Shown here in pieces: positions 3,686-51,400 of a stretch of 64,000 nucleotides of DNA (position 1 is its first letter; each line of letters opens with the position of its first letter). Source of the stretch: Nemertoderma westbladi (lineage: Eukaryota; Animalia; Xenacoelomorpha); the NCBI GenBank assembly GCA_032718475.1, contig JAUCBJ010007520.1, positions 33,800-97,799 on the forward strand, in the 5' to 3' direction. The position numbers were made by a program, and so were the translations under genes. The notes beneath the pieces were generated by a model. It worked only from the letters and a program-made list of their open reading frames with translations. It searched no databases and was not told the origin of the DNA.

Positions 3686-6600
3686 CATGAATTCCATGAG
3701 AAAACGGACATGGCATGTCAATTATTAAACCCCCCAATGTCTATTTTCAAATATGGGAGCTCTCAACTAATGTCCTGAAGTACTTAAAACAAGAAGAGTT
3801 TCGCCATGCCGACAATATGGCGCCGCTCGGCGCCTGTTTGAATACAAGCATATACTTACGGAAAATTTTTGTACATTTGCGTGTGATTTTAGCCATTATT
3901 TGAAGGTAGGTAAACAGAGAATGCCACATTTTCCCACAGATTTTGAAACCAATAATTGTAAGCTATTATAAGAGGCTGTGGTTGATTAAATATCAGCCAC
4001 GCTTATGGTGTTCTGTGCTCACAGGGATCAAAAAACCAAAGTATAAAAACGCAATTGCGAATTCTGAAATTCCGTAACGAAAAACATTACGAAAAACTTA
4101 CCTGTAGATGGATATTGGACATTGTGGGTTAAAAACAAGATTCCTCTTTCGGTTCATCAGTGTCAACCAGCCAGATGTTGTTCCGTAAATTATGATGCAT
4201 GTAAAGCTGAGAAAAAGCCATTACGGAATTTCAAAATATCGTTACGGAATTTCAAAATATCGTTACGGAATTTCGTTTTTGAAATTCCGTAACGAAATAT
4301 CCTGTAGGCCTACGTCTGGTATCGCCCAACTACAGTATCACAATTACTTTCGGTTTCTGTAGTCCACACATGGTGTAGGCTACCTAATTAGGCAGTCGCT
4401 GCTGTACTTACAAAGTTCATTTACCGGTAGTAAAATGGCAAAAACGAACGCTCAAAGGCAGCGTGAGTACAGGGAACGTAGAATCGAGAAAGATAAAGTG
4501 GGTTTCTTGAAACAAGAGAGTGAAAGGAAGGCAGCTAAACGAAAGTCGTTATCTCCACGTAGTCTAGACAAGTTGCGCAGGAGACAGAATACGAGTCTGC
4601 TGAAATGCCGCCGAAATAAGCTGACTGTATCTGCATCGACAGCGAAATCAGGCCATGCAGCTGGATATTCTACGTGCCAATCGCTAGGCAAAGCAGTTGC
4701 ACGAGTGAAACGCACTTTACCAAACAGCCCGCGGAAAAGAAAGGCCGTGATACGGAAGTTATCTCTGGACCAATCGTTGGTGAATGAACGGCCAGTAGTT
4801 GAAATTCATCGCCAACGTTTAAGTGACGAGGTCATCACCAAGGTTAAGCAGCATTACTTGTCGGATGAAATATCTCGACAGGCACCAGGCAAGGCAGATC
4901 AGATGTCTGTTTACGAAGATCGTGTAAAGGTTCATAAACAAAAGCGACATATGGTAATGACGCTGCGAGAGGCATATGAAGTCTATATTGAACAGCCAAA
5001 TGCTAAGGACGACATTGGGTTTTCCAAATTTTGCATGTTGCGTCCAGCACATGTCCTGCTGTCATCGCAGTTGCCGCGCAATGTATGCACATGCATTTAT
5101 CACCAGAACATCATCCGTTTAATGCAGGCACTGCATCGAGATATGCCAGATCAGTTTCCGTTGTATGGAGATGAATTTATCACTAAATGTGTTTGTGACG
5201 TGACCAATAATAAGTGCATGCATGGTCTGTGTGATATTTGCACTAATAAATTTGCTGCCTGCTACATTGATGATCTATCGCCAGCGACTACCAGTAAACC
5301 TTTCGTCTGGTGGGAATGGAAGAAAACCCTCCACGAGAACGGGATTGCAACGGCAATGCGACTGAGTCAGCGGCGAGGGACTGTTGCAGATGGAATAGAG
5401 ACCCTTGAAGCGATGTTACCGAAGTTTTTGGCTCATCATTTCATCAAGCGGAACCAGAGTGACTATTATGAAACAACTAAGGGCGAATCATCGGAAGATG
5501 CATTAATGCAACTCGACTTTGCTGAGAATTTCACCTGTAAATATCAGGATGAGGTGCAATCGGCTCACTGGAATGCACAACAGGTAGGCATATTTACAAG
5601 CGTTGTGTTTGCAAAGGGAACTGCTCACAATACGGTTGTAGTATCTGACTCACGTGAACACGAAAAGAAGACTGTGTCTGCGTGTGTTGTGAAGATCTTG
5701 GAACATTTAACGTTAGATGGACTTAAGACGTTGCACATATGGAGCGATGGACCTAGTTCACAGTTTAAGAATAAGTATATAATGTCGCTTGTCGGATGTG
5801 TGTTACCACACCTGTTTCCTACGCTCACTATTACATGGGATTAGTTTGCAACATCGCATGGGAAGGGGCCCTGTGATGCAGTTGGAGGTAGAGCAAAGGG
5901 AATGGTTCAGCGCGTGATTAACTCTCGGCGAATGATTGTCCAAGATGTTGAGTCATTTGCCACTGCTCTGCGCAGTGTTGACAAGAACACCAATGTGATT
6001 GTAATCACAGAGGCAGAGATTGCTGATTGGTGTTCGGAAAACACAGCTGAGTTGTGGCAGCGAGTCGAGGCAGTTCCCAATTGTCTCTCAATCCATCATG
6101 TTGAACCGCTTTTAAACAATGAAGCGATTAGCATCCGCCGCTATGGCAATGATACTACCACCAAGATCCACAGTTTCAGTAACATTCTTCCAAATGCAAA
6201 GGGACCCACCATACTCCACCCTGAAGAATCTGCCACAACTGTGGGGCTTAGTGAATTCAAAGAGGGCGATTATGTTGTCGTCAAGCACGGCGATTACAAA
6301 CCAGGTAAAATCGTCCAGATCTTAGGGTAATCTGCCAACGTCCTTGCAATGCAAAAGAGCGTTGGATATAGCTGGAAGTGGCCCGATACTGCAACAAGTA
6401 TATCCTGTAAACGGGGAGATATCGTCGTCGCCATTAAGGAACCAGCTGCTGTTAATAGTCGGGGAATGTATCGAATCCCTGAACTGGACTACTACTATAC
6501 TATGGCTTCTAGTTTTCTAGTAAATTAACTCGGTTCTACTGTTGGCCTACTGTATAATGTTGACTATAATATATCTGTCTGTCTCTATTTTGGATTTTCA

Positions 6601-9740: not shown

Positions 9741-10698
9741 GCATACTGGAACCTTTTAGCGCATTTGATCAAGAAGCAGTTTACCCACAATTAAATTAGG
9801 TTTAATTCTCAAATTCTTTATTGTGTAAGTCATGTAAGTAATTTGTTTACCCAGAGTCCACACTCAAAAGAAATGGGTTATTTGATTTAATCACTTGGGC
9901 CACATCTGTTATACTGTACTTGGGTCGGGATGATTTATTAAAATTTGTGGGAAAATATTGAGAGTCAGAGAAGTGATATTTTGGGTTCTAAAACGTCACT
10001 TTAAAAATCAGTCCTGCGATTTTTATGGGACTCGGTGTGGGCTCTGATGTTTGATTTTGGGGGTAATTGAGGAAGATGGTGGAGTTCCGCTCATTCTAAA
10101 CGTCTTCCGCATTTAGAGATTCTAGATTTATCTAAGGATTCTTGTTCAATCTGTTCATCGCCGTCGCCAGCGCGTCTCTTCCTGAGAATCTGACTATTTT
10201 TTTCTTGAATACTAATCGCATTCTATAATTCTTCCTGTTGTTTTTTAGTTTGCAGAATTTTCAATTGAGCTGCCTGTGTGGCTGTTAAGAGTAACCGTTC
10301 CTTTTGTTTTTGTTCCCACAATAAAAGTTATTGTTCTCATTCTCGGTCTTGCTCCCTTTCTTTGTTCTCGTTCACGTACAAGAATTATTCTTTTTCTTTT
10401 TCCTGTTTTTGTATTTATTTTTCCTGCTCCGATTGCAAATGATATTGTTCTTCCTGAAGTTTCAATTCGCTTAGTTTATCCTTCTTTTCAGAATCAATTT
10501 ATTAATTGATATTAAATAAAACGATAATAACTTTAACTAAAAATATTAAACATCAATCAGCTGTTTTCATTTCTGCAGTACTTCTCATTTCCTGTTCTCA
10601 ATATTACAATTTTGGAATAAAACTATATTAATACGTGTGTTGTTTAAGTAATTTATATCATTAATAATTAATAAGCATTAATGTGACTTTTCAGTTTC

Positions 10699-11913
10699 TG
10701 TAAAAGCTTTTGCTGAATTGTCCGGTTATTTTTCCTTATTTTTCCCGTAAAATACTCTGTAGTTGGTTTACCAGGCATAAAAAGGCCGTGTCCTTGCTGT
10801 ACTGGTGTTTTAGCGGACATAAAAGCTATTTCTTCTGTATTTGTACTTTAGAGGACATAATCCGTAATTCCGTGACGTAAAAGCTCGATACTCTTGAAAA
10901 CAGTGTCGCTACCATGACGACGGCTAGCAGCTGATATTGCCACGTCGACGTTTCTTTGTTTCTCTGTTCTCTCGTTGTTCAGGTTGACCAATCAGAGCGT
11001 TTGTTATCTCTGTGTTGGAGGTATATACAGAAACTCAGTAGTTCAGTGTTATGTTTTTCCCCAGAGCCTAAGAACCGGCTTTGGCACCTCCGTGTTTCAG
11101 TTTTTAGTCTTACACTAGTAGGTTTAATTATAAAGGGCATATATCCTTTAACTGACCTGACTCATGGAATCACTGCTAACTGATCATACATACTGACTGC
11201 TGAAACATTGCAAACTCATAACAATCAGTGTTTTCATTGTTGTTTTATACTGCTATTTACCGTCAGTTCTTCATAATATGGTTGATGAATTATTATATTT
11301 GGAATAACGATAAATAACCCCGAAACCCAATATTCTTGATATACCGAAGGTAAGAGAGAAGGGTTACAGATAAACGATTGTGACTTATGTTAAAGTGGTT
11401 TGAAGTGAATCTAATGTTATTTGATAGACCCTACATGAGTCAGTCTGTGTTCCTTTTATATGTGACTAAAATCAGTGAAGATTGGCATATTAGTGTGCAG
11501 TATTGTGCAGCATTGTGTATGAGTGAGTCTGTTAAAGAAGCAATTCCTAAAGAATGCGCCATATATGTGAATTATAATTAAGCCATATCGTTGTGAGTAG
11601 TTTAAGTCATAACTCTGTTTATACAGATAAAGCGCCACGTCCTAAAGGAACTGTTAATATTACCGAAGGTGAATAATATTGTCAGAGATTATATAGTACT
11701 GTCAGTCGAATAATACATTAGGCTTACATAGCAATAAAATTAAACCGTCGAACCCAATCTCCCGGGAATATCCAGCGGGTGAATGATGGCGCACAGATTG
11801 GTTTCGACTAGTGTAGTGAATCAAATACTTGTCATAGACTAAAAACCGATTTAATATCTAGAAGACATCTTAATTTGGTGGGTTAAACTGCCAAAGGTCT
11901 GAAAGCGCGAACA
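10699..11913 (+). repeat. 5' LTR of element A
   Basis: TGTAAAAGC...GCGCGAACA; CCAAT near 10988, TATA-like GTATATAC near 11021, AATAAA near 11733. Confidence 0.95.
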
Positions 11914-11925
11914 TTAAAGGATATA
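11914..11925 (+). promoter_or_regulatory. Non-canonical primer-binding site TTAAAGGATATA, complementary to LTR segment 11140-11151
   Basis: Directly follows the LTR CA; no TGG; exact reverse complement TATATCCTTTAA lies in both LTRs. Confidence 0.6.
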
Positions 11926-12199
11926 GCTTCTTTGTTGCAGTAAGCAATAAAGTTGAAAGTACCGGTCAACCGGTAAACCTGAACCGGTACACTCTGTAGG
12001 TCAGTAGGCCTAACTGTTCTAACCGGTACTTCAGTATAAGTACACTAGTATTATTCGATTTGATTGTTGTATACCGATAGGCTGTTTAGGGGATTAGGGA
12101 TTGATCACCCCTTATACCTTTATATGGTTTACTTATTTCTGTCAAGTTTTATTTATTTGTAGGCCAGTATTGAACAGAAGGCGTGTAAGCCTGATCAGA

Positions 12200-12775
12200 T
12201 TGTACAGACAATTTGTAGGCTGAGCTGTTGTCTGATTGCTGTTAAGTCCGAACGAATTGCAGTGTGTGTAGATCACCTGTCCGATTAAGTACGATTAGGC
12301 AGTAGGGGCAGCGAACGCTGTAAGGTAATCCCCCAACTAAAGAATAAGTCGCACTACTGGGTTAGAGCGCATACTCCCTAATCATTTCGGAGTCTGCATG
12401 TCCTGTGGTTTATTTAGGCTTGAGAGTGGTCTGCCATCGTTTAGTCTGTACTTTGTTTGTGTAAGTCTGTACGGGTAGCGTATAATTTTATTTAGATAAT
12501 TTGTAGGCTGGATAGTTGTCTGGCTGTTATTAGGTCTGAACGGATTGCCGCGTGTGTAGATCATCTGTCCGATTAAGTACGATTAGGCAGTAGGGGCAGC
12601 GAACGCTGTAAGGTAATCCCCCAACTAAAGAATAAGTCGCACTACTGGGTTAGAGCGCATACTCCCTAATCATTTCGGAGTCTGCATATACCGTAGTTTG
12701 TTTAGGCTTGATGGTAGTCTGTCAGTGTTCGGTCTGTATTTTGTTTGAGTAGTTTGTACGCGTAGCGTAATATTT
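12200..12775. repeat. Direct duplication (period about 288 bp) in the 5' leader of element A
   Basis: GATCA[C/T]CTGTCCGATTAAGTACGATTAGGCAGTAGGGGCAGCG... at 12271 and 12559. Confidence 0.9.
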
Positions 12776-14101
12776 ATTATTCGGAGTTTATGCGATTAGT
12801 CGCAACATTCAAGTCCCCAAGTTTGTTCCTACAGTAATTGTGTTTGTTATACATACCGCTATAGTTAAATTAACCCCGGTACTACACGGGCTGCTCGGCG
12901 TAGGTAAAGACTGGTGATTTTGTGCATCGGTCACTCCAGCAGATGCCGTGGTTCTTTTAGCTGTTCAAGTATATTTAACTACTGATTGTCTGTTATATAA
13001 GTACTCGTACCTAATTTAGGGTTTAGTGTACAGTACTTTCCGAAGTAATTATTGTAGACATTATATTTGTGTTGTAAAGTGGTTGATAGGCACATTCGAT
13101 TAGCTCTATTAACTTCTAGGGAGGAACACTCCGTGATACATAACGTAGAACCTATAGCGATACGGCTATAGGTCGTCAGGCGGTGGTATTTTCCTATCTG
13201 GACAACGCAGTGTATTTACTACTACTTATTATTTCAAATACCGTAGTACCCTGTCCGTTGTAATAACCGGTTTTCTAACCCTTTGTTAGGCTGGTTTGTA
13301 GACTTCTTGTAAAATTACCCTAAAAATTCGTATTTTGTGTTTTTTGTAAATTTTTGTGTTTATTTAGAGATTGTAATCTCAACCCGAATTGTACGTAATT
13401 TGTAGTATAAGTAACTTAGGTAAATTAGTATTATTTGTTTTAGTGTCTCATAAGTAACACTTCACTGAAAGCGCACCGCTTTGTGTAGTGATTACTCCCC
13501 AGAAATAATAACATTTATTTCAAACATTGACAAAACCCATTAAAACGGGTATATATATATTATAAATCAAATCTAAAGATTTATAAATAGTAGGCCTACC
13601 ATACAACCATTAGGTCTTAATATCAGTTGGATTACTGCTTAAATAACGGTAATAAAGTAAGTTAAAGTAACCAAGTAACCCTAAAGTAACAGAAATTCAA
13701 TTATTTGAAACAATTGATATACCGGTATTTACGATAGGCCTATTATCTTTATTTCTATAAATCTAGGCTGAAATTATACCGGTACTTGTAATTAATTCTA
13801 TTTCAGAATTATATATACTATAAACTGTAAGCTGTATACCGGTATTCCGATAGGCCTATTATATATTTATATATATTTTGTGCTAAAATTATACCGGTAT
13901 TCGGAGATAAACCTAGTCTGTAATAATACTTATATAGTTATATATACTATAAGTATACCGGTATTCTAATATATTATATATATATCACGCTACACTGAGT
14001 AGCAGTAACGGTAATTAATTACTAGGCTAGCAGTTAATACTGAGTTACTAGACTTGCTCAGACTGTAATACAGCAGTAGACATTCAACTGTACACACAAA
14101 C

Positions 14102-17100
14102 ATGTCTGACGCAAAGCAGAACCTGTCAGACAGTCTACTAGATACAATGGATATCCTGCTCGGGCAGATGCAGGAGACTGTCCTGCAATTCAAGGGCACA
14201 GTAAGGGAAAGTAGGCTGGAGTTGCAAGAAGTGCAGCAAAGTATCGCGCTTGAACGCGATAAATTAGTAAATACCCAAAAGGGTATACCACCACCCTCTG
14301 TAACAATGTGTCAACCTGTTAGGTCTGAAGTATCTCATGCGCAAGGTGTGGAGCCTACACGCATCTATACTGCTAGCGAAGTAGAAACTCCTATAGTGAA
14401 CCCTATTAAGGGTAATTATAGACCTGTTGATAATGATATTCCATATAGAACTGATCATAATCCGAGAAATTTATATGCCGATAACTCGATATTAAATAGC
14501 ACGATGGCCCAAGAAAGTTTTACGCGTCAAATGGCTAGAACCGAAGCCCGGCAAGCGGTAAAGGTGGGAGAGATCGTTAAGTTCAATGGAGATGAGATGA
14601 AATGGTTACCTTTTAATGAATATTACAAAGATAACATACAGAACTCCGTACTATCTAATGGAGAAAAACTTAGATACCTCATCGAGTGCTTGGAAGGATC
14701 TCCCAAGTCAATGGCGTTAAAATTTATTGGACATCCAGATGGATTAAGACAAGTTTGGGATACACTAAACATCAGGTATGGTAATAGGAATGACATAGCT
14801 GGGTATTTGTATGCAAAATTAATGGCGCCCCGAAAGTTTCTTAGCAGCGGGATTATAGAGTTTTCCGATGAGATTCAGGAGATCTGTAGACAATTAGATT
14901 GGCTAGGTAAGTCTCATGAATACCAGAATTCTATGGTTGTAAGAGCCTTAGCATCTGCTTTGCCCAAGGGTGGAGTAGGTACACGCTGGGATAAGAAGGT
15001 GTTATATATGATGGAACAACAACGACGAGACCCTACCATGACTGATCTCATGTCATTCTTAGATAGAGAAGTGAAATTACAGCTCCTAAGGCAGTCCAGA
15101 GAGAAGACATTGGAAAACAAGGTAAGTGAGAAACCCGTTTCTAGGAGAAGGGTAACACCAGTATGTTATACCGACGACGGTGAAAGCCAAACCTCTCAAG
15201 GAGAGGACAGCGGGAAAGACACTGACAGACCTTATTATGTCAATAAAATGCCTAAAGAACAGGTAAGTAAATCCAAGTCTCGACCCAATGACAGAAGGGA
15301 ACCGATACAAAAAACCCCTCCTACGTCTCCTAAAGGAATTCAGGTGAGAAAGCCCGAGGAAATAACAAGTGTGCACCACATAGCACAGGTTAAAGTAAGT
15401 AACATCAAGCCGAAATGTGTGCTGTGCGACGGGCCCCACCGTTTAAATGCGTGTGATAAATTCCTGAGGAAATCACTCGAGGATAGACGTGAAGTCATGT
15501 GGGATAAGCGGTTGTGTTATAATTGCCTCAGACGAGGACACCAACGGCGAACCTGTAACTCCGATGCAAGGTGTGCAAAGTGCGGCGCAAAACATCATAT
15601 CTTGTTGCACACGGAATTCGAACGAAACAGCCCGAGTCAGGTAAGTGAGTCCGAACTACATGTCCAATTCAGTGATGTGAACGACACTGATCAATCTGAG
15701 ATGGAAGGATTCTATACGGACGAGTTCTCCGACCAAAACGAATCCTGTTACCTAATAAACACCACCGCAGTGTATCGAGCACTTGTGTATGAGAAAGACA
15801 CAGACAGCGACCTTACCTTAACTACTTCCGATCAACAACCATCTTGGAAAGCGCCAACTTCCAATATAGGAATCCGAGAATTTCCTGTAGTCCAGTTACG
15901 GGTCCACGGACCTCAGAAGAGCTATATAGTGAACGCCCTCCTGGACTCCGGTAGCACAGGAACATTCATCGATAGGGAACTAGCCGAAGTCATCTTTGCT
16001 GGACAACCCAAGTTCCGAACCAAGCTAAACCTGTCAGGGATCATGCAGGTTTGGAATTCTACTGTAGCTGCCGACTATTATATAGGTGAGTTGTCCACCC
16101 CCCAGGACGAACTAGGAGAACATAGCATAAGGTCAGTGAAAATGGTGGCTATAAAGAACTTCGCTACTACTCAAGCAGACCTTTATAATTGGGACGAGGA
16201 TGAGAGCATCCGACATCTTAACATACCTCGATTCCAGACAGATTATCCTGGAGTGCAAATACTCATCGGCCAAAACGCGCATGAGGCGCTGGAGACATTA
16301 GAGAAACGGCCTGCTCAACCGCAGCCCCTACAGACCTATGCGGTAAGAACTAGAGTAGGTTGGTACCTTGCTGGACCTTCCCGTAGAACGCTCAGGGAAA
16401 GACTGCTTCAAGATCGCGTCTGCCAGGTGAGTGAATGGGAAGATGATACTAGTGAGGGAGACGACCCAACTGAGGGAACACCACACTCCTCAGATAATGA
16501 CAATCTTAGCTCCAATGTAGATCAATGGAGATATTGCCCCAAGAAGTTTAATCCAACAGACATCGCTTCCAGAGGAGCAACTCCTCAAGAACTGACAGAT
16601 ACTACAGACCGGTTAGGTGAACCCGACTTCCTGAGTAAGGAGAATGAATGGCCTCCCCATCTTACTCCGACTGAGATTAGACCAGCCAAGGGAGCGGAGA
16701 AAGTCGAACCTGAAACCCGGACGGGTGGATCGGAGTTATTTGAACCCGGGATAGATCTGTCGGTATTACATGTTGCCAGGGACGACGCCGTGGATCTGGG
16801 CCTCCCCTCCGCGAGTGGATCCTTCATGAAGATCAGAGAGAGCGATTGGAGCTCTGGAACATCAGACGTCTCGCAGGGACTCTCACCTCTCCTGCAGAGA
16901 GCGACGGACCACTATAGCTCCTGGAATCGGCTTTGTGACGCCGTCATATACTTTGAGCAATGTTTCTATCGTCACTATTCCAGGACGAAGAGGAAACCTG
17001 GAATTGTATTCAGGATGCAGCGACTCAATCACCCAGTCGGTCGTTTGTGTTTATCGGAAGGGAATGGAGGACTCTCCGGAAACTGTGGAAGGCAAGATTC

Positions 17101-17155
17101 TCTTCCCACGACCACCTCCCTAATCCTTCAAACATCTAGGGACTCCATAACGTAA
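14102..17155 (+). CDS. BEL/Pao Gag-protease polyprotein (1017 aa) ending in an RNase H C-terminal remnant
   Basis: DUF1759-type Gag (FNGDEMKWLPF...EKLRYLIECLEG), three knuckles (CVLCDGPH, CYNCLRRGH, CAKCGAKHHILLH), protease LLDSGS, TRVGWYLAGP, then QWRYCPKKFNPTDIASRG; no YxDD or integrase. Confidence 0.9.
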   Translation: MSDAKQNLSDSLLDTMDILLGQMQETVLQFKGTVRESRLELQEVQQSIALERDKLVNTQKGIPPPSVTMCQPVRSEVSHAQGVEPTRIYTASEVETPIVNPIKGNYRPVDNDIPYRTDHNPRNLYADNSILNSTMAQESFTRQMARTEARQAVKVGEIVKFNGDEMKWLPFNEYYKDNIQNSVLSNGEKLRYLIECLEGSPKSMALKFIGHPDGLRQVWDTLNIRYGNRNDIAGYLYAKLMAPRKFLSSGIIEFSDEIQEICRQLDWLGKSHEYQNSMVVRALASALPKGGVGTRWDKKVLYMMEQQRRDPTMTDLMSFLDREVKLQLLRQSREKTLENKVSEKPVSRRRVTPVCYTDDGESQTSQGEDSGKDTDRPYYVNKMPKEQVSKSKSRPNDRREPIQKTPPTSPKGIQVRKPEEITSVHHIAQVKVSNIKPKCVLCDGPHRLNACDKFLRKSLEDRREVMWDKRLCYNCLRRGHQRRTCNSDARCAKCGAKHHILLHTEFERNSPSQVSESELHVQFSDVNDTDQSEMEGFYTDEFSDQNESCYLINTTAVYRALVYEKDTDSDLTLTTSDQQPSWKAPTSNIGIREFPVVQLRVHGPQKSYIVNALLDSGSTGTFIDRELAEVIFAGQPKFRTKLNLSGIMQVWNSTVAADYYIGELSTPQDELGEHSIRSVKMVAIKNFATTQADLYNWDEDESIRHLNIPRFQTDYPGVQILIGQNAHEALETLEKRPAQPQPLQTYAVRTRVGWYLAGPSRRTLRERLLQDRVCQVSEWEDDTSEGDDPTEGTPHSSDNDNLSSNVDQWRYCPKKFNPTDIASRGATPQELTDTTDRLGEPDFLSKENEWPPHLTPTEIRPAKGAEKVEPETRTGGSELFEPGIDLSVLHVARDDAVDLGLPSASGSFMKIRESDWSSGTSDVSQGLSPLLQRATDHYSSWNRLCDAVIYFEQCFYRHYSRTKRKPGIVFRMQRLNHPVGRLCLSEGNGGLSGNCGRQDSLPTTTSLILQTSRDSIT

Positions 17156-17699
17156 CAACATATGGAGTGGGTGTGTGACTCTATTATTTTATATTATTTT
17201 ATTATTTTTATATTTATGTATGTATTACTATGTAATTCTATTATAATCGTTTTCTTTAATTTTATTCAGTAGAATGTTATTTTAGCGATTATTTAGTAGA
17301 TTAGTGCAATATATATTCGCGTTTATTACTTAATTACGTATATATTATATTTAATGCGACGGCAAGAAATAATTCTTTTCCTTCTTCCTTACTGTCCGTA
17401 TTACATTACAAATACGTAACTACAGTAAGATGAAATGTCCGTACTTATTAAAGTACAATAAAGCCACTACTATATTCAAGTATTATTGGTAGGCAGAGTA
17501 TTAGGAATGCAAAGTTCAGATCCTCGTGTCTCGGCTAAACCAAGCTCTGGGTAGACCTTGGAAACGACTTGCCTCTTCACACTGACATTGCTTCGTGCGA
17601 TATTGCTCTCATACCGTATATTAAATAATACATATAGTAGCGTGATGTCCCTTTAACAGTAGCGTATAACGCAAAATAAATCTGTTAAACCCTTTGACC

Positions 17700-17995
17700 A
17701 TCTGTAATTCTAGTCGATTAAGATATCGCGGCACCCACCGATATACTTGAAAGACAAATTCTAGAATCAGTGGTTAACGTCCCCAGACAAGTTCTGGAAT
17801 AAATCGGTGCCCATCTCAAATATTAATTATTTAATATTTGCAAATCTAATAAATCAAAATCTGTAAAATTCAGATCCTTCAGCAATTCTAGTCAATTAAG
17901 ATATCGTAGCATTTACCGATATTCTTAAAAAGACAATTGTCATAGAATTAAGGATCTTGTGTCCCCAGACATATTCTAGAATCAAAATATGTCAA
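17700..17995. repeat. Diverged direct repeat (period about 179 bp) between the ORFs of element A
   Basis: AATTCTAGTC[G/A]ATTAAGATATCG...GTCCCCAGACA near 17706 and 17884. Confidence 0.75.
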
Positions 17996-18812
17996 TTTAA
18001 TTATCAAATAATAAAATTTCAGGGAATAAATTTAAATTCATGCCTTTTAATGAATTTAATAAATTGCCATTTTTACGCAATTTATAACATTCCCAAAATT
18101 CCATTAATTAATAGATCAAGGGAGCGGAGATTTATCTTATTATGTGTATGAGTGTGCGAAAGTCTCCCAAACATAGTCAATAGCCGATAAAATTCATAAA
18201 GTCATGTATAAAACAGAACATTGACTATTAAAGAATACTATTAAATAACATCCCAGATCTGTATGCATTGGAATTGCTCTAATTCTACCGCTAGCTTTGC
18301 ATAATGTCACCATAGCAACAACCACGCTAGAATTAGAATTGAGTTAAAAGAACAATAGAAAGCTTGTCCCATTGAATAGCATAGGGAATAAATAGTGCAC
18401 TGATAGTATCCAAGGATACATAATAATACAGTGACATTCTGGAAGGCATTGACTAACGGACAAGTGACCCGAGTGTGTGTAATTTGTGACAAGTTGTGTG
18501 TGTGGTATTTGAGAGTTTATAGGCGAATGTTACTACTAAGGTGTGTTTACAGTAGCTAGTCGCAATCGTAAAAGTAACCTAACTCTCCAAGGAAAACCTG
18601 AAGTACATCTAAGCCTTTGGGACGGACAGTTGAGTGACTTGTGCCGGTTGTCGTTGTCGTTGTGCGGCTACGTCGTTGGCGAAAGTACAGAGGCGACGAC
18701 ACATCGGCGCTGAGGATCTCGTACTGTCCGGGGGTTAATTGGGGTAGTCAGCGACGCTCGCTAGCCTAAATATAAACTCCTTATAATATGGATAAACTCA
18801 TATATAGCAGAT

Positions 18813-19505
18813 ATGACGGAGTTGATAGAAGATGGTCTTGGTATCGGGGAGCGATATACTCTACTTTTACAAGCGTTTGTTGATAGCTTAATACGCGGCG
18901 ACGTTAGTCCAACTGCTGCGGAGGACGATGGTCGTTATGTCAAACCGACAATGTCCCAAGTGCAGCTCTCGCGAGAGTTGGACTATAGAAAATTCGCTGC
19001 TCGATATACGCAGCGTAATGGTACGTATATGGGCTTCTTAACTACTGGTCATCCTATCGATTTACACGATACGGACAATGTCGACACCAAAAGGGAAATG
19101 GTACGATTGAAATATCCTACCCAGCGGAGGCGGAACGATAAACCGAGAATGGAACACGAGAATTCTATTCGAAACAGACTCGAAAGAGAAGACGTTGAGG
19201 AGCCGGATAAACGCAGCGACTTCAACGATTATCTGGAATTCCTGATAGAAACATATCTCAATATTGCCAGTCAACCAAATCTAGAAACTCGATATCCTCA
19301 AGGTATACATCATGACCGCATGGTAGAACTCAAACGGCTCAATTCCCCTATGATGTATCTTACCGCCGATCGACCGCTACCTGTTGTACCGAATAGCTTC
19401 GAACGGATGGAGGAATATTGTAAGCTGGAGAAAGATCACTCGCGTTTCCCCTACAAGACGTACGTTTTTGGGTATTATTACGATAAATGCCCTAGACCCA
19501 ACTAA
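18813..19505 (+). CDS. Accessory ORF of element A, unknown function (230 aa; probably once extended to ~20284)
   Basis: ATG-initiated ORF between gag-pro and the 3' LTR; downstream broken frames end in ...LKKLRKRRLRKKD*. Confidence 0.55.
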   Translation: MTELIEDGLGIGERYTLLLQAFVDSLIRGDVSPTAAEDDGRYVKPTMSQVQLSRELDYRKFAARYTQRNGTYMGFLTTGHPIDLHDTDNVDTKREMVRLKYPTQRRRNDKPRMEHENSIRNRLEREDVEEPDKRSDFNDYLEFLIETYLNIASQPNLETRYPQGIHHDRMVELKRLNSPMMYLTADRPLPVVPNSFERMEEYCKLEKDHSRFPYKTYVFGYYYDKCPRPN

Positions 19506-20363
19506 TAAACGGAAAGACATAAACATCCACGTAAACCGAAACTTGTTGACGTATCACCTATGCTCACTCGGCTCGAACGATCCTGGAGTAAACCTACGAT
19601 CAGAGTCCCGGAATACTCGGTCAAACCTCCTCATTCCTTAGTTGGACCTCAGACCTGCGATCCTGGTGGTGTCGCGGATCCTCGCGGACTGTATTCACTG
19701 TTCAAAGATCTAGTGCTACCCTAACAATTAATCGGTAACACTCCGACAGTGATTTCTAGCTAGCCGCCCATCTTACCTAGCCGGATTGTGACGCGGACAC
19801 CTAATATCACTATCCAACCGTATGGTCGTCCACGTTTAACGCGATACAACCCCTCATCAAGGTGAAGGAGAGCGTTGTACGAAACGAGTTAAACGCTATT
19901 CTATAAAGATCAAAAGGGAAACCTGCGTTTGTTCAGATAAACGTAAGTTATAACAGTAAGTCCAATCGATAAACGAATTGGCCTTATCTCAATTCGATTG
20001 GGAAATCCAGAATCTCTAAGAAGTTATCGAACTTGGACGATCCTATTCTCTGCGAGAGTTTTTGGATGAACGTATCCAGCTACGAGCGGAGGAAAATCAG
20101 CTCGAGGAGAAGCATATCGAAACGGCAGATACCTCGACCATAAACCTACACCTTCTGATGCAATCATATTGCACCCTTCACCCAGGAGTTATGGCCCTCC
20201 TAGTAAAGTGGCTCCCCCCAAAGAGAAAAAGACTCTTGCTAGCCTCAAAAAACTGCGTAAACGCCGTCTGCGTAAGAAAGACTAACTGTTTAGAGTATCT
20301 TTATATTTTAGAAACTGTGATTTTGTATATTTTATAGACTTAAATCCCATTTTCTGGGAGCGG

Positions 20364-21578
20364 TGTAAAAGCTTTTGCTGAATTGTCCGGTTATTTTTCC
20401 TTATTTTTCCCGTAAAATACTCTGTAGTTGGTTTACCAGGCATAAAAAGGCCGTGTCCTTGCTGTACTGGTGTTTTAGCGGACATAAAAGCTATTTCTTC
20501 TGTATTTGTACTTTAGAGGACATAATCCGTAATTCCGTGACGTAAAAGCTCGATACTCTTGAAAACAGTGTCGCTACCATGACGACGGCTAGCAGCTGAT
20601 ATTGCCACGTCGACGTTTCTTTGTTTCTCTGTTCTCTCGTTGTTCAGGTTGACCAATCAGAGCGTTTGTTATCTCTGTGTTGGAGGTATATACAGAAACT
20701 CAGTAGTTCAGTGTTATGTTTTTCCCCAGAGCCTAAGAACCGGCTTTGGCACCTCCGTGTTTCAGTTTTTAGTCTTACACTAGTAGGTTTAATTATAAAG
20801 GGCATATATCCTTTAACTGACCTGACTCATGGAATCACTGCTAACTGATCATACATACTGACTGCTGAAACATTGCAAACTCATAACAATCAGTGTTTTC
20901 ATTGTTGTTTTATACTGCTATTTACCGTCAGTTCTTCATAATATGGTTGATGAATTATTATATTTGGAATAACGATAAATAACCCCGAAACCCAATATTC
21001 TTGATATACCGAAGGTAAGAGAGAAGGGTTACAGATAAACGATTGTGACTTATGTTAAAGTGGTTTGAAGTGAATCTAATGTTATTTGATAGACCCTACA
21101 TGAGTCAGTCTGTGTTCCTTTTATATGTGACTAAAATCAGTGAAGATTGGCATATTAGTGTGCAGTATTGTGCAGCATTGTGTATGAGTGAGTCTGTTAA
21201 AGAAGCAATTCCTAAAGAATGCGCCATATATGTGAATTATAATTAAGCCATATCGTTGTGAGTAGTTTAAGTCATAACTCTGTTTATATAGATAAAGCGC
21301 CACGTCCTAAAGGAACTGTTAATATTACCGAAGGTGAATAATATTGTCAGAGATTATATAGTACTGTCAGTCGAATAATACATTAGGCTTACATAGCAAT
21401 AAAATTAAACCGTCGAACCCAATCTCCCGGGAATATCCAGCGGGTGAATGATCGCGCACAGATTGGTTTCGACTAGTGTAGTGAATCAAATACTTGTCAT
21501 AGACTAAAAACCGATTTAATATCTAGAAGACATCTTAATTTGGTGGGTTAAACTGCCAAAGGTCTGAAAGCGCGAACA
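20364..21578 (+). repeat. 3' LTR of element A
   Basis: Copy of 10699..11913 at offset 9665. Confidence 0.95.
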
Positions 21579-22188
21579 GTTTCACACCAGTACTATATAT
21601 ATGAAGTTACTATCTAGCTAGATTTCCCTTAAAAATAATATCCTCTCATTGGTAATGGTAATCAATCACTCAGTGCTGGATCAATGTTGTACAAACAATA
21701 AAAAGCAATAAGTCAGTCTCATGCACATCATAAAGAATAACTATTTAAGTAGTTGTAGAAAAGTATGCTCTTTTTGCCTACTGTAAAATAATAAAGAAAG
21801 ACAAAAAATGTTGTTTCTTTTTGCCACCACTTAATGTAATTTTATTTGTTGAAAGTAATTTGAAAAGAATAAAAACAAAAAAAATATCTTCCATCGAAGC
21901 GTCTTCCGCAGTGAAATAACTAAAGCAAAAGCGAAATAGTAAAATGGGTAATATGGCTATTATAATATTATAATATTCTAGAATAATAAATATCATGTGG
22001 AAACCATTAGCGCTATCTATTTAAATTCAATAATATTTATTAATGTCATGGAAATTACTTTGAAATTTAATTCGAACATTATGTTTTTTGTTGACAAAAA
22101 AGTGCTATTTTTGTCAAACTTGTTAATGAATTTGACAAAAAAAAGTGACTTAAATCAAATACATAAACTTAAAAAAGATCTTACATAC

Positions 22189-22720: not shown

Positions 22721-25398
22721 GTTTTGTTATCTAAGATGATTTTATTTTTTGCAATCGAGAACTGTTACGATATATGGCGCTGTGTACTAGAACAGCCCAT
22801 CATACAGCATAGAGCGATTAGATAAGTTTTATCGATGTAGAGCATTCATTAGGTAAGGAAATTGAAATATACGAGTTTATATTATTCAACCAATTTTGTA
22901 TAGTATGTAGCCTTACATATGTAATTTTTATAATAAAACCTTAGTATATTAAATTATGGTGGCAAACTTTTGTAAAACATTAATACGAATTTGCCGTTTA
23001 TTGACATTGACTGATCCTAATGTGTATTCGTATTAATTTCGTTTATATTTCCCTACAAACTAATGTTATACTAAATTAATGCTAAATGTGCTTTAATAAT
23101 TGCGAAATTAATGCTACGGCCATAAACCTATAAGCCCACCAAGACAGATTTATTACCATATATGGTAATGATTTGGGAAATGGGGAAGCATAGGGCTATA
23201 ATCCGGCTCTCCCATTGGTTTAGTTATTTTAGGTTGGTCTAATGGTAGTAGGATTTGTTGGACCAATGATATAATCATTGCTTCATACCTATATTTTGTC
23301 AGTGTACCTCAGTATACTTTTAGTGTATGCCAGTGTATACCTGTCCACCAGTATAGCGGTACTGTGCACGTTTTAGTTGACTTTAATGTTTTCGATCTTC
23401 TTGCTTGTCATTTGTACATCAATTTCTGCTTTTAAGCCTATATAATTACAACTTTGAATAATGATCTTCTTGCATTGACTCTTGATTTCTTTAATCTTTG
23501 CGATTGCGATGTAGCAATTCCTTACAAGAATTTCCTTTCAACTGTCAGACTGTTTGTAAATGCATGCGCCGATACAGTAACTATTTGCTTTAGAATGATG
23601 GGCTAAGGGTACCTGTAGGCGTAGCAGGCGCACTGTGGAAGCGACGGAAGGAGGAGTGGAGGATCCAATGTGGGGCAATGCTGGTGGGGGGGGGGGGGGG
23701 GGGGGGGGTAGTTGCGGTTGGGCTAATCAATTAAGGACCGGGGACCGGTCGTCACTACAGTGTTTGGGGGCTGACGATCTAGCTTCGTCTCAACTGTGTA
23801 GTACTAGGGTAGTAATAGCGGTTTAGTTAGGAGAACCGCACGTAGCTTGAGTGGCCTTGCTCTCTCACCCGAGCACTATCACACTAGCTCTATTACCCAA
23901 CTACCATTAGTGTTATTATTACTATATATATTAGTGTGTTGTTAATGCTATTTTATGTTGTGTTGCTGAAGAGAGCCTGGTGTTTGAATATAATGATTAG
24001 ATAGGCGCTACTCTCCCTTGATTGTTTTCTATTTCTTAGTTTATGCATATTAATTGCTGTTAGGTCAAAATAATACAGTATCTAGGCTGTTGCTAGTATA
24101 ACTCAGTAACGTAATAATTAGTAATACATATTCTGGAATACTTAGTAACAAGTACGCAAATTTGTATTTTATGACACTGTAGTTTATTTATCATGTTAGA
24201 ATAAAGTTAAGAACTTGTACGCTGCATAGCGGAGTGGAGAATAGTTGGGTAAATTACTCTTAGAAATACCTTAGGATATTCAACACTAGGCGGTAATTTG
24301 AAAATAGCAGATTAGCAGGCTGACAGAGGTAGCCAGTGTAGCACAGTAGTAATTTTGCTGGCCTAAAGCCAGTGCAAGGCCAAGTTTGACATTAGGACAA
24401 ATAAATAGTCTATCCCATTATAATATTAAAATATTCTCACATTTGACGTTGTCCTGCCCGATAACTGCCTGCATTTCTCTGTGGTAAGTGAACACCGAGT
24501 GCAAACCACCCGCACTTATATTAAGTAGCTTAGGAATCCAACTCGGATTTATTGTTTTGGTTGCTGCTGTTTTGGCTTATAAATTCGAACAGTTAGCTCT
24601 TTGTTGAGAAATCGACAGAGAAAGGAGCATGCGATTGGCAGCGTGAATAATTTGCATAGTAAATGGTTGTGTTTATATAACCCAACAGTAAAGAGTTTTG
24701 TTTGCTGTATCGTTCGACGGTAAGACATTTTGGTAGACGATTCTGCTTGCATCCAACAGTGAAGGAGTTGGATAGTTCAACAGTGAGAGAGCTGATTTTG
24801 TGTTCACTATTCATTTGAAATACAGCAGTTCATTGGGCTGTTAGGGTAGTGTAGTGTATTTATTCACTTTATTATTTGTTCACTAATCACAGAATATAGG
24901 AATTTATTGGGCCATTGGTAATCGTAAATTAGTAAGTTTTAAATTATAGCTAGGTTTGTGAGAATTCAGTTTCGGCCAAAATTATTTATATAATAAAATT
25001 TAGAGTTTTAGTACCGATATGTTGGATAACTGCTTAATTATTTTACACCATCTGGAGATACATGGCGAGATGGAACTTCTGATCCTGGGGTTTGTGTGGG
25101 CCTACGGGTTCGGTTTGCAATCAGCGACGAGACTGAAACCTAGGACGCGGACGTGGAATCTCACAGCGAACAATGTTAGTTGTTCTGTTGGTACCATTGT
25201 AATTGTGAAAGCAGTAAAAAATTACCGGTTGTTTAACTGCGAAACTGAACTCAGTATATTAGTTAGCCATCTATGGTGTTTTGGATCGCTCAGTTGGAGA
25301 GAGAGAGAGTGTCGCAACCTGAAGGTGTAGCCACGCGCCAGTGGATACATATATAAAATTTAAAAGTAAAATTACGCTAATTTGAGCTCTATATATAT

Positions 25399-26770
25399 TA
25401 GGGTGGTGCGTTTTTTACTTTTTTTCGATTTCATTGTTCTACCGGTGCATAAAAGTTGCCAAATGGTAAAAAAATAAGGCAAAAAAAATTTCTTTAAATC
25501 TATGTCTTCACGGATCCCAAGAGGGTTGAAATTTTTTGCCATCGCGATGCACCATAATGAAATTTATAACAATATAACACATTGATGAAAGATCAATGAC
25601 TCAAAAAAGAACTTCCTGCATGCATCAAATGTCATCAAATGGGTCCAAAATTAGTTAGATACCAAAATTTTAATTTTTGGATCAAGGGAAGTTGTGCCAC
25701 AGGCACATGACCAGAACCTACTCTATGGCGCAAGTGATGATTATTCTCAATTTTGGTGATGGACAACATTTAGTTCTCCTACGGCATTATTATTATGCTC
25801 ATTAGAACCGCAATGACCGATTTAGTGGGTGTAGACACCATCAAAACAAGCATAGAGCGAATAGTTCTTGAGATATTACAGAAAATGTCAACATTACTGC
25901 CTTGATAATTTATAGACAAATACACAAAAATGTTACTTCTAATTATCTTAAGGCATCAAAAATATACACATCACTGCAACAAATTGATTTAGTGTATACA
26001 GAGACCTTCAAAATTAAAGAGTACCGGTAGTACGTAATTCACTATAGTTTTTGTACAAAATGTGTGGAATGTGTCAACTCAATATCACATAGTAATTGGT
26101 GGACATAGTCTTGACATTTTGTAAAATAACTCAAGAACTAATGACTCTACTCTTATTTTGAAGGTGTCTTCACCCACAATATCGATCATTTCTGTGATGT
26201 GTCTATTTTTTGATTCCTTGAGATAATTCAAAATATCATTTATTGTGTATTTGTCCATATCACATCAAGGCGGTAATGTAGACTTGTGCTGTACTTCACA
26301 TTTTCTGCGATATCTCAAGAACTATTCGCTCTACGTTTGTTTTAAAGGTGTCTACCCCCACTAAATCGGCCATTGCGGTTCTAATGAGCATAATATGAAT
26401 GCAGTAGGAGAACTCAAAGTTGGCCATCGCGAAAATTGAGAATAATCATCAGTTGCGCCAAATGGTAGGTTCTGGCCATGTGCCTGTGGCACTAGTTCCC
26501 TTGACCCAAAAGTTAAAATTTTGGCATCTAACTAAGTTTGGACCCATTTGATGACATTTGATGCATGCAGGAAGTTCTTTTTTGAGTCATTAATCTTTCA
26601 TCAATGTGTTATATTGTTATACATTTCATTATGGTGCATCGTGATGGCACAAAATTTCAACCCTCTTGGGATCCGTGAAGATATAGATGAAATTTAAAGA
26701 AATTTTTTTTGCCTTATTGTGCACCGGTAGAACAATGAAATCGAAAAAAAGTAAAAAACGCACCGCCCTA
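25399..26770. mobile_element. hAT-like non-autonomous fold-back element with inverted arms of about 600 bp
   Basis: TAGGGTGGTGCG...CGCACCGCCCTA; 8-bp ATATATAT on both sides; arms match as reverse complements over most of the length. Confidence 0.85.
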
Positions 26771-27284
26771 ATATATATATATACAATTAGAAATAGTTCG
26801 GGTGACAAATTTATTTTTTTTGAATTTTCGAATTAGATTCAAAAATATTTTCGTGTCATACCAGTATTTAAATGCTGTATAATAGCTATAGAGCTACATT
26901 TTTGTTTAAATATTATACCGGTATTTACTATAACTATATACAATTAAATTCACAATATTTATATTGTGAATTTACTTTAGTATTTGACATTTGAGACCAA
27001 ATAAATTATTTTGAAAATAATTTAATCGAAATTTCGATTAAATTAATATATATCTCGAAATCTTGCACGTACACCCGCACTGTTACTGTTAAAATAAAGT
27101 GTCCAAACAAGAAAAAGTGTAAAACCAAGGGTTTACACACCTTGGACAGACCGGTCCAGGACATTGTGTTATTAGAGGAAACATGCATTGAGACAGGCAC
27201 CAGCTATGCTATTTGTTGGGGTAAGTCACTTTACCGATGACATTTTTTCTTTGTTTTTTTAATATATATTTGTACATGTTATAT

Positions 27285-39819: not shown

Positions 39820-40636
39820 ACAATTACCAATTGATGGAAAGGAGCATGTTAGAGAGACCGGATTTTCTAACCAAAACAATAAACAGTCGCTTTACCAAAT
39901 GAAGGAAAAGGGAACAGGTTACAGAGGCTGGCCTTTCTAACCAAAAAAAATAAACGGTCACTTTACCAAATCAGGGAAAGGAGCGTTACAGAGGCGGGAA
40001 TTTCTAACCAAAACAATAAACAATCACTTTACCAAATGAAGGAAAGGAGCAGGTTACATAGATGGTATTTTCTAACCAAAACAATAAACGATAACATTAC
40101 CAATTGAGGGAGAGGAGCACGTTAAAGAGGGTGGGCTTTTCTAACCAAAACAATAAACGATCACTTTACCAAATCAGGGAAAGGAGCAGGTTACAGAGGC
40201 GGGATTTTCTAACCAAAACAATAAACGATCACTTAACCAATTGAGGGAAAGGAGCAGGTTACAGAGGCGGGATTTTCTAACCAAAACAATAAACGATCAT
40301 TTAACTAATTGAGGGAAAGGGGTGTGTTACAGAGGCGGGATTTTCTAACCAAAACAATATAAACAGTCACTTTACCAAATGAAGGAAAGGAGCAGGTTAC
40401 AGGGCGGGCCTTTCTAAACAAAACAATAAACGGTCACTTTACCAAATCAGGGAAAGGAGCAGGTTACAGAGGCGGGATTTTCTAACCAAAAGAATAAACG
40501 ATCATTTAACTAGTTGAGGGAAAGGAGCGGGTTACAGAGGCGGGATTTTCTAAGCAAAACAATAAACAGTCACTTTACCAAATGAAGGAAAGGAGCAGGT
40601 TACAGAGGCGGGCCTTTCTAACCAAAACAATAAACT
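39820..40636. repeat. Tandem array of about 68 bp (about 12 units)
   Basis: TTTTCTAACCAAAACAATAAACGATCACTTTACCAAATCAGGGAAAGGAGCAGGTTACAGAGGCGGGA. Confidence 0.95.
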
Positions 40637-40719
40637 ATGTCATGAACATAACAATAAACTATGTAAAACCGGTACCGGTACTAAAATTCTGAAATTACCG
40701 TAATTAATAAATTACCTTT

Positions 40720-47829: not shown

Positions 47830-48417
47830 TAGTAAAATTCAATTCCGCTAGCCAGCCCCATAAAGTGAGCTTTAAGCAATATTGGGAACACGAGGTTGAT
47901 ATCCAATATCAACCTCGTATCACCCCAATAAAATGGGGACAAGAAAACCCAGAGGACACACACAATAGGGGTCAGGGGTTACACCCCTGAGAGAGAGGGA
48001 ATAGCAGGAGTAACGGGAAACACTCCAGGGAAGGTGAAGGGGCGACAATTAGGTTATTAGCCAATGGGGGGGGGGGGGGGGGGGAAGGCATCAATCAAGT
48101 AATGTAACGCGGCCAACCATGCAATATATATTATCAGTAACTGCGTAATTCATTCACTTGTAGTAAGTCAGCTAGTTAGGGCGGTACCGGGATTCTAATC
48201 ACCGTACATATCCATCTACTGTCAGTAATATATCACCATTTACCAGTAACTTTGCTTTCAATAATATTCACTTCAGTAATTGCTATATTGTACTAATATA
48301 CCCTTGGAACTATATACACCGATCAATAACTCTTTCCATCTTTTCACACACACACGGCGGGGACGATGCGTAGACTAGAAACCGGATAAATCGGGATCCT
48401 TGGTGGATCCCATCACA
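47830..48417 (+). repeat. 5' LTR of element B (first bases altered)
   Basis: AATTCAATTCCGCTAGCC...GGATCCCATCACA matches the 3' LTR. Confidence 0.9.
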
Positions 48418-48426
48418 GTGATTAGA
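48418..48426 (+). promoter_or_regulatory. Non-canonical primer-binding site GTGATTAGA, complementary to LTR segment 48194-48202
   Basis: Directly follows the LTR CA; no TGG; exact reverse complement TCTAATCAC lies in both LTRs. Confidence 0.55.
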
Positions 48427-48473
48427 CCACAACTACCCTAAAGTAAAAGTAATAAACTCTGACTGCCAGCCAC

Positions 48474-51400
48474 ATGAGCCAACAAGGAGAAACGACACCG
48501 CCGCGGACCCCGGACGGCGATCTAACGATCCGTGAGGCCGCGACGCGACGGTACCGTCCCGCGATGCCGAATCAACTGACGGCGGACGATCCGGCAATCC
48601 AAACCGAGGGGGACCGTCTAGAACCGGAAAATGAGTCGAGGGAAGGAAGAGACGAGTCGGGAGGAGAGGGAGACGAGTCGACACAGGGCGGCGGTCGACG
48701 TGCCGAAGTCGCCGGCCAGCCACAGGCCGAGGGCGACGGATGGCCCACCGGAACGGCGACGGTGGGTCCGCCGGTACGACGCCGGACCCGGAGAGATAGA
48801 GGAGATGTCGGCGACGAGGATGTCGGGGTCAGCGATCGACTTCAACGGGCCTACAACGCGACCCGGAAGCTACTCAAAGAGACTAAAGGAGGGGCCAAGG
48901 TAGACCAGGTGAAATTGAAAAGGCGAATAGGTGAGTCAAATGAACATTTTAACTACTTGATGCGTTTTGGGCAGAGAGAACTAGCCGATGAGAGAGCGAG
49001 AGGGGTTGCCACCGAACTTTTCGAACTATGGGAATGTAGGGGTATGGAACCTAGCGTAGTGTATGTAGGGCCATACTTAGTCAATGCCCGGGGAGTAAAA
49101 TTAGTGGGTTGGAGGAGACCGAAGGAGGGCGAATCCAAGGTTAACCCCGAGGATTCGGTCTCGTCGGTCGGAGGGAGTTCCGGGAGGCGGGGGAGAGTTA
49201 GTAGGATGGGAAGGCGGAGGGAATCCGTCACAACCGATAAGTCCGCTACATCCTCCGCAAAAGAAAAACGGGTGCGGGCAATAGGTCTGGCGTGCCAACT
49301 CGACCTGGCGGCGCTAGACCAGAGAGAGGTAGAGAGACAGTTAGAGGAGGGGAGTGCGCTATTAAAGGAGGAAATAGAACTGGTTAGAGAGAACAGAGAG
49401 AGGGCCGAGAAGGTCGCGAGAAGCTTTAGGGAGTGCGAGGAAATAGGGAGGAAGAAGCAAGAGGAGCGCGAGGCGAGAGAGCAGAGTGAACGTAAGGAGC
49501 GCGAGGCGAGAGAGCAGAGTGAACGTAAAGAGCGTGAGGCGGAACGTAAAGAGCGTGAGGCGGAACGTAAAGAGCGTGAGGTGGCGAGGGAGGCGAGGCG
49601 GCTTGAGAGAGTCGCGTGAGAGGCGGAATTAGCCGATCAGAGTGCGTGGGAGGATCGGGAGAGAAAGGCAACGGGGAAGCGTGTGCGGGATGATTTACAT
49701 GCCCGCCTAAAGGGGCTTATTCAATATCAAGCCAAACAAAAGCGCTGACTGGAACTGGTGCAGATGGGATTGTCAGAGAGTGACGCTGGCTCGAGTATTT
49801 TCGAGGAGCCAAGGGTTGTGGAAACATTTATTAATACCCCACTTACAGGAACCGCACGACAGACCCGAGACTGGTGTGACCGTATGGGCGGGGGGGGGGG
49901 GGGGGGGGGGGTAATAATACAGTAGACAATGTTAATATTAATAGTACCGTATTGGATAATTCTAATCAAACTTTCATTGCAGGAAATAATATTTTGCCCG
50001 ACAGTAGTAATTTAAATCCGAATGATTCTAATATTAATGTAGGAAATAATTCAAATAATATAATTATGCAAAATAATTCAAATAATATAATTACGCAAAA
50101 TAATTCAAATAATTTAAACTTAAATCCGAATTTACAAAATAATCCAAATAATCTTATTTCGAACGAGCAAAATAATTCCATTTCTAATCTGGGCGCACAA
50201 AATAACTTGATTGAGTTAGAGGATTTAATTGATCTAACCAATGGCAATATCAGTGGTGCTATTAACGTGAACGTGTCGGACGTGTATAACCCGGCAAATG
50301 AGGGCCTGGTAGGCCACGTAGTTAGTAGGCCGGAAGTGGCGGGGTTGAGCCAACCCGAAGAGGGCCTGGCAGGCCACGTAGTTAGTAGGCAGGAAGTAGA
50401 GAGCCTGGTAGGCCACACAGTAGCAGAGGGAGAGGCGGGGGCGAATAGACCCAGCCGCAGTAGGGTTAATGTGTCGGCTAGAGAGGGGTGTAGTAGCGAA
50501 GTAAGATATAGTGAAGTTAGATGTGGCGAATGGGGGGGGGGGGGCTACAGGAGCCCCACAACGACAAGTTAGTGGCGAGAGGGGGGGGGGGGGGCAGAGA
50601 GTGCCCCACATGCGTCGACGGATAATGCGCTGGCCGAGTTAGGTAAACCACAACACCCGGCGACGGAGAGTAATAGGGGGATTGCGAGTATCTACAGCGG
50701 CGTGCGATCGAGCAGAGAGAGGCAGGTTGACGTCGCGAGAGGGCAGACGAAGCGTCGAGCCCGATCAGAAGAGGGAAGAAGAACAGTGGAGTTTAACCGG
50801 GAGGTCGACGAGAGATCTCACGAGCGGGAATACTGCACTACAGAGAGAAGAAAGGAAGAGAGTAGAAGAAGTGTCGCCGCGAACGACAGGAGAGCGAGGA
50901 TGGATAGCGAGCCGTCGGTGGTAGAGATGGTGGCGGAGAGTCAGAGGGGTCGGACTTCGGGAGATTGCCGTCGTCCTGGAGAAGCGCGACCTGATGAGGC
51001 GTATTACGCGTCGAGAGAAGGGTACGAAATGTACTGGTACGAGGACGAGAGAAGTAGAGGGGGTCGAAGAGAAACTTCCCAACGGGATATACCTACCGAT
51101 CGAGAATATGGAAGCCGCGGGGAGGATTATTTGCGAAGGTTAAATTTCGATCCCGAGCGACACGTACAGACTGCAGGACATACTGTAGGCCTTACTGCAC
51201 ATATGATAGGCCATGCTGAGAGAGATAATATAGGCGATAGGATAGCGCGAACAACGGGATTAAACCCGGAAGTCGCGGAGTACATACCGGCAGGTAGGCC
51301 AGAAGTAGATAGGCCTATACCGGTACCAGCACAGCAGTATGACTACAGCATGCAAGGACATAACATATACCCAGGGGAGGGGAGAATTATTGCGGATAGG

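Follow-up and report, generated by a model that had tools for sequence, protein, structure and literature searches.

Complementarity between the post-LTR site and the element's own LTR in BEL/Pao element A of Nemertoderma westbladi and in further families: candidate tRNA-independent self-priming

What primes minus-strand DNA synthesis in an LTR retrotransposon whose primer-binding position cannot pair with the end of a tRNA? The question is raised by element A, located in a 64,000-nt stretch of a Nemertoderma westbladi contig (the whole of the DNA analyzed here, henceforth the window). According to the ICTV description, members of Belpaoviridae possess an 18-nt site for a host tRNA-Arg or tRNA-Gly and are primed by that host tRNA (PMC8742986). 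Element A and a second, distant element in the window (element B) resemble this family in the DUF1759 Gag, the triple zinc knuckle, the LTRs of 0.2-1.2 kb and the polypurine tract, and element B also in the order protease-RT-RNase H-integrase; they differ from it in that neither has the ICTV-defined tRNA site, with no TGG following the LTR. No tRNA genes were found in the 64-kb window. A preliminary description proposed that element A is primed by a segment of its own LTR, and here we follow up that proposal.

Element A occupies positions 10699-21578 of the window, in the forward orientation. Its two 1215-bp LTRs (10699-11913 and 20364-21578) differ from each other at 2 positions, have TG..CA ends, and are flanked by a 5-bp target-site duplication GTTTC (10694-10698 and 21579-21583), with a purine-rich tract (20356-20363) preceding the 3' LTR, as is typical of BEL/Pao. 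A single open reading frame (14102-17155) encodes Gag, with a DUF1759 domain (Pfam E-value 4.9e-13) and three Cys/His zinc knuckles, and an aspartic protease with the motif LLDSGS; BEL polyproteins match the element in tblastn searches. Neither Pfam nor tblastn revealed RT, RNase H or integrase in element A, save for a short vestige near 16520. Thus, element A, which is young, is a non-autonomous deletion derivative of a BEL/Pao element and needs the enzymes of a partner element. Its Gag-protease yielded only one match at an E-value of 1e-10 or better among longer proteins and is too divergent to be placed on an RT tree. An additional intact frame of 246 codons in the 3' part (18765-19505) has no matches in Pfam or Atlas and could not be assigned to any family. 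Contigs from the coded runs cover the whole 5' part of the element with a very large summed depth, which is in keeping with a highly repeated family, depth not being equivalent to copy number. The long 5' untranslated region contains a tandem duplication of ~288 nt (12206-12775, 88% identical).

The 12 bases that follow the 5' LTR, TTAAAGGATATA (11914-11925), contain no TGG and are the exact reverse complement of a candidate self-primer segment within the LTR (11140-11151) and of its copy in the 3' LTR (20805-20816). These two LTR copies are the only matches to the complement of TTAAAGGATATA in the 64-kb window, in agreement with the preliminary description, and the first paired base is the first base after the LTR, so that the register with the terminal CA is also as proposed. 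The suggested extension across single-base bulges was likewise reproduced in RNA folding: the duplex is predicted to reach ~21 bp across two such bulges, G-U pairs included, with -19.9 kcal/mol. Pairing of 12 nt with the LTR is attained at 1 of 8404 internal positions of the element, and a first-order Markov model yields an expectation of 3.1e-4. A local hairpin overlapping the segment (11131-11150) is predicted as well, but it is weak (-5.0 kcal/mol). Post-LTR bases complementary to the element's own LTR, in register with its end, are a hallmark of Tf1/sushi elements and were found here in element A; as judged from the sequence, the complementarity is real and selected.

Element B provides a second case. 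Its 5' LTR (47836-48417, with the first bases diverged from the 3' LTR at 60984-61561) is followed by GTGATTAGA (48418-48426), again without TGG, and these first 9 bases pair exactly, at offset 0, with a candidate self-primer segment TCTAATCAC (48194-48202, with a copy at 61338-61346); the corresponding cis helix is predicted by folding. The match is shorter than in element A: 24 of 12511 internal positions match as well, and the expectation is 4e-3. The gag-pol region of element B (51400-56714, forward strand as the other features of this element) is split into several ORF pieces containing DUF1759, aspartyl protease, Peptidase_A17, rve and DUF5641 domains, i.e. a BEL/Pao pol, whose best relatives are 33-38% identical; it forms a very long branch in a FastTree phylogeny of 85 sequences. 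Elements A and B show no match at the nucleotide level and their Gag-protease regions are ~23% identical. Neither element requires a splice-junction partner: the best spliced pairing is 9 nt in A and absent in B, i.e. no better than the contiguous matches. Element B also contains a donor-like GTAAGT motif at 48163-48168, just after the predicted start and upstream of the segment, where the next plausible acceptor would put the segment inside an intron, as well as extra ORFs before gag (48456-51517) and after pol (58382-60283) with no Pfam hits. Elsewhere in the window, long inverted repeats around a short core (25390-26779) resemble a non-autonomous DNA transposon, two satellite-like arrays (1-1976 and 39826-40663) have units of ~30 and 68 nt, and an ORF of 493 codons (4363-5844) has no Pfam matches.

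In order to see how other BEL/Pao families compare, we scanned metagenome contigs with an RT-RNase H alignment and retained 79 loci (61 nucleotide clusters) out of the 80 best among 439 confirmed matches. We inspected twelve loci in which a repeat could define the 3' end of the LTR; two of them were dropped, L026 with the repeat inside a coding region and L058 as a member of the same family as L070 with an interrupted repeat end, which together with A and B leaves 12 families. A tRNA-type site is absent from A, B and 8 of the 10 others. All ten TGG-less families with an independently fixed LTR end can pair 9-15 nt of their site with their own LTR, each with different letters, starting within 0-3 nt of the LTR end, as opposed to 4 nt in both TGG families (L043 and L073). 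The partner is contiguous in four of the ten (A, 12 nt; B, 9 nt; L013, 11 nt; L033, 11 nt), and in the remaining six it forms only when a GT..AG gap of 67-186 nt is bridged (L004, 12 nt; L005, 11 nt; L006, 15 nt; L022, 12 nt; L036, 11 nt; L070, 10 nt). L033 and L036 have TA-like LTR ends, with an uncertainty of ~2 nt in position.

When the sites and LTRs were swapped between families, no pairing exceeded 9 nt under strict splice-site rules (0 of 132 swaps), a filter that missed the acceptor of L070, and 6 of 132 swaps reached at least 10 nt with any GT-AG pair allowed. Control positions attained the observed length in none of 100 cases for seven families, in 1 of 100 for two, and in 5 of 100 for B in the loosest search. 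Another 11 loci, in which the LTR ends were placed by eye, gave 10 matches of 10-14 nt (eight spliced and two contiguous), although these loci were picked by eye and thus provide no estimate of prevalence. A blind scan of all CA/TA positions gave at least 11 nt in 21 of 36 loci versus 17 of 108 swaps; it is modest in power, with several of the best hits being palindromes or low-complexity sequences, and serves as secondary evidence only. On the midpoint-rooted tree, families with a match occur on many different branches; L004 is placed, with weak support, near the two TGG families, and the tree gives no order of events. No relatives were found by the scan among viral contigs. In L024, visual inspection shows pairing of ~16 bases between the site and the LTR, interrupted by one bulge, but this locus failed the strict test, and L067, L068 and L052 are head-to-tail BEL/Pao repeats of ~6.1-6.3 kb, i.e. 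tandem arrays, circles or assembly artefacts. The outcome of this covariation test makes tRNA-independent self-priming the best reading of element A, as the preliminary description had it, while the use of an RNA 3' end that it also contemplated is not favoured (see below).

The partners that span a gap can be evaluated as splice products. We ranked the splice sites blind to the primer site, using approximate donor weights: the donors of the six families take ranks 1, 4, 2, 4, 1 and 1 among 36-69 GT sites, and their acceptors ranks 1, 1, 1, 1, 2 and 2 among 14-36 AG sites. Moreover, L065, which is 90.3% identical over 7.1 kb to its sister L062, is missing precisely the 168 nt predicted as an intron in L062 and still has a contiguous match of 11 nt, so that intron removal is precise regardless of whether L065 represents an RNA or an intron-less DNA family. 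With the intron removed, the helix has a predicted probability of 0.89-0.97 in three of the six families (L005, L006 and L022), as compared with at most 0.09 with the intron in place; the helix is not predicted in L004, L036 and L070 even when spliced, nor in L013. The precise loss of the intron together with the gain of the modelled helix speaks for selection on the pairing in processed RNA, in which case the segment would be transcribed.

In families with a recognizable TATA-like box, the segment ends 78-296 nt downstream of that box (133-135 nt in L013), so that the segment is probably internal to the transcript; the case nearest to Tf1 is L004, with only 36 nt from the box to the donor. 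In element A the motifs CCAAT (10988) and TATATA (11022) constitute a predicted promoter (10988-11027), 130 nt from the segment end, from which we infer a transcript start near 11045-11055. Folding of the leader is less straightforward. The helix is predicted with a probability of ~1 only for starts at 11125 or later (11125-11140) and of at most 0.07 for starts at 11045-11120, where it competes with other pairings and imposing it would cost 0.4-12 kcal/mol. Little weight can be placed on predictions over 900 nt, and Gag may act as a chaperone for the helix. The region 11350-11626, with a GTAAGA donor-like motif and a YAG acceptor, may represent an intron of the LTR on the downstream side of the segment. 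Among the 38 variant places listed for family A, 25 fall into 11351-11626 versus 2 in 11090-11350, a contrast biased by the lower depth on the left side. Removal of candidate downstream introns, with the donor set one base off, gave a helix probability of 0 for a start at 11045, and of 0, ~0.35 and ~1 for three acceptors with a start at 11099, i.e. no stable prediction. Contigs of a related LTR coincide with the reference no earlier than 11101 and part from it at ~11152-11157; this related LTR thus appears to share with element A the block from 11101 to ~11157, which includes the segment. Run X5, guessed to be RNA, contains no informative joint in the LTR of element A.

These features bear on whether the primer is provided in cis by the 5' leader. 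Alternatively, its source might be the segment in the 3' LTR (20805-20816) or a second RNA packaged alongside, e.g. if TATAAA (11129-11134) were the real TATA box and the segment were transcribed only at the 3' end. The segment is indeed present in both LTRs of A, its distance from the site (762 nt) is well above that in the remaining independent families (70-216 nt), folding from upstream starts does not predict the cis helix, and the junction in L065 sits in an LTR copy following U3. Nevertheless, CCAAT and TATATA lie upstream of the segment at a distance close to that in L013, a cut in the 3' R would be expected to delete the sequence on which the strand transfer lands, and folding does predict the cis helix for B, L033, L005, L006 and L022. 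We therefore regard a primer from the 3' copy or from a second RNA as unlikely.

Another explanation is that the helix is an RNA structure selected for packaging, export, translation or splice sensing, with priming left to another molecule, e.g. an internal tRNA fragment or a host RNA. In fungal Copia elements an internal tRNA-Lys site or a hairpin is used at the same position, according to the sections available to us of PMC5445492. In addition, a variant at 11918, within the site, is common in family A (25% of the depth in run X1 and 27% in run X3) and makes the predicted duplex weaker (-15.7 instead of -19.9 kcal/mol). No compensating change at 11147 is present among the 40 of 47 variants listed for X1 and X3; beyond those listed there is one further T-to-G place in X1 and none in X3, and the depth in the next bin drops ~sixfold. 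A purely structural role is difficult to reconcile with the observations that the site differs in every family yet matches the family's own LTR, that pairing starts 0-4 nt from the LTR end, exactly where the 3' end of a primer must sit, and that the TGG families lack the helix. We consider it improbable, and self-priming of the element, by whatever route, very likely.

As to the source of the primer 3' end, the preliminary description invoked either cleavage or the 3' end of an RNA terminated after TATAAA at 11129. The latter would imply that the cleavage/polyadenylation machinery makes the primer end. TATAAA begins 23 nt before the segment end in A, a usual distance of a poly(A) site from its signal. 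In the independent families, AATAAA or ATTAAA is found downstream of the segment end in six of ten (+6 to +581), is absent from three, and occurs far upstream in B; in none of the ten is a hexamer located 10-30 nt upstream of the segment end. Hexamers being mostly downstream, the segment end is generally not a poly(A) site, and element A itself has a canonical AATAAA at 11733, which together with ATTAAA (11733-11744) is its likely poly(A) signal. This distribution favours a Tf1-like cleavage over the use of an RNA 3' end; the non-canonical TATAAA leaves the latter route open for A alone, where we find it very unlikely. The segment ends in AC in 18 of the 20 matching families or loci (8 of 10 independent and 10 of 10 secondary), with the exception of A (AA, followed by C) and L006, which suggests a specific cut. 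Finally, fortuitous complementarity in AT-rich sequence (the 12-mer of A is 83% A+T, and some control positions equal the 9-mer of B) is largely refuted by the recurrence of the match in ten of ten independent families and by the expectations given above, and hardly deserves consideration.

The known systems closest to element A belong to other groups. [quoted passage not shown] Element A is similar to Tf1 and Tf2 of Schizosaccharomyces pombe, and to Tf1/sushi elements in general, in the register and length of the pairing, but these are chromoviruses of the Ty3/gypsy type, whereas the domains of A and B are of the BEL/Pao type and place both elements outside that group. The segment in A, 130 nt from the TATA-like box, is suggested to be internal, unlike in Tf1, and many relatives of A pair only after splicing, while no splice-made partner is described for Tf1 in the same parts of these papers. 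For the TAR elements (Houba, Osr-1; Ty1/copia) and Tcn1 of plants, self-priming has been predicted from at least 10 bases, 0-5 nt after the 5' LTR, that are complementary to the LTR (PMC6317226, in the sections available to us). The ground for prediction is the same as in A, yet these elements represent other superfamilies and another kingdom, and the accessible text does not describe a partner made by a splice junction. The fungal GalEa Copia elements have a "conserved hairpin site" with both arms downstream of the LTR and no complement in the LTR (the accessible part of PMC5445492). As far as that account goes, a self-pairing sequence takes the place of the tRNA site, while in A the partner resides inside the LTR. 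Cer7 from C. elegans reportedly encodes its own tRNA-like primer.

In the body of papers that we searched, we found none on self-priming or on a splice-built primer in BEL/Pao. A search by term in the accessible text of PMC3118150, PMC554778, PMC6238403, PMC8556966 and PMC2996953 yielded no discussion of the primer site, and the portions available to us of PMC6317226, PMC3601003, PMC3286476, PMC5443660, PMC5445492, PMC12451622 and PMC6934838 mention self-priming only for Tf1-type elements, Tcn1 and TAR.

Taken together, the primer for the minus-strand DNA of element A is probably the element's 5' leader RNA, cleaved where the duplex ends. In this model, transcription would start ~100 nt upstream of the segment, which would lie inside the predicted R region, and the leader would fold back onto the post-LTR site. 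A cut after 11151, probably by the RNase H of the partner element, would leave a primer ~100 nt long; cleavage by RNase H is the simplest model by analogy with Tf1, where this enzyme cuts the duplex. The strong-stop DNA would span U5 and the part of R downstream of the cut, and would then jump to the 3' R. In many relatives, removal of an intron from the LTR transcript would bring together the last 10-15 bases of the primer. This intron would be inherited from the unspliced 3' copy; copying of a spliced 3' copy would give rise to intron-less families, and A and B may be such. As to the group as a whole, we lean slightly towards the view that in a large part of BEL/Pao tRNA priming has been replaced by a primer from the element's own leader, that in many families the spliceosome joins its LTR exons so that splicing licenses reverse transcription, that the unspliced 3' copy passes on the intron, and that A and B are already contiguous.

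BEL/Pao is one of the main groups of animal LTR retrotransposons. If many of its members self-prime, the reference description in terms of host tRNA would be wrong for a large share of the group, annotation tools relying on a tRNA site would miss or misjudge such elements, and silencing by tRNA fragments at the primer site would not be expected to reach them. The predictions of the self-priming model are specific, namely one particular splice junction and one particular RNA 3' end, which in most cases would follow AC. A primer created by splicing, if true, would connect host RNA processing to the initial step of reverse transcription in a way not described before, and would pose the puzzle of an intron that is removed at one end of the RNA yet survives at the other. 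If this reading is correct, self-priming arose in all three LTR superfamilies.
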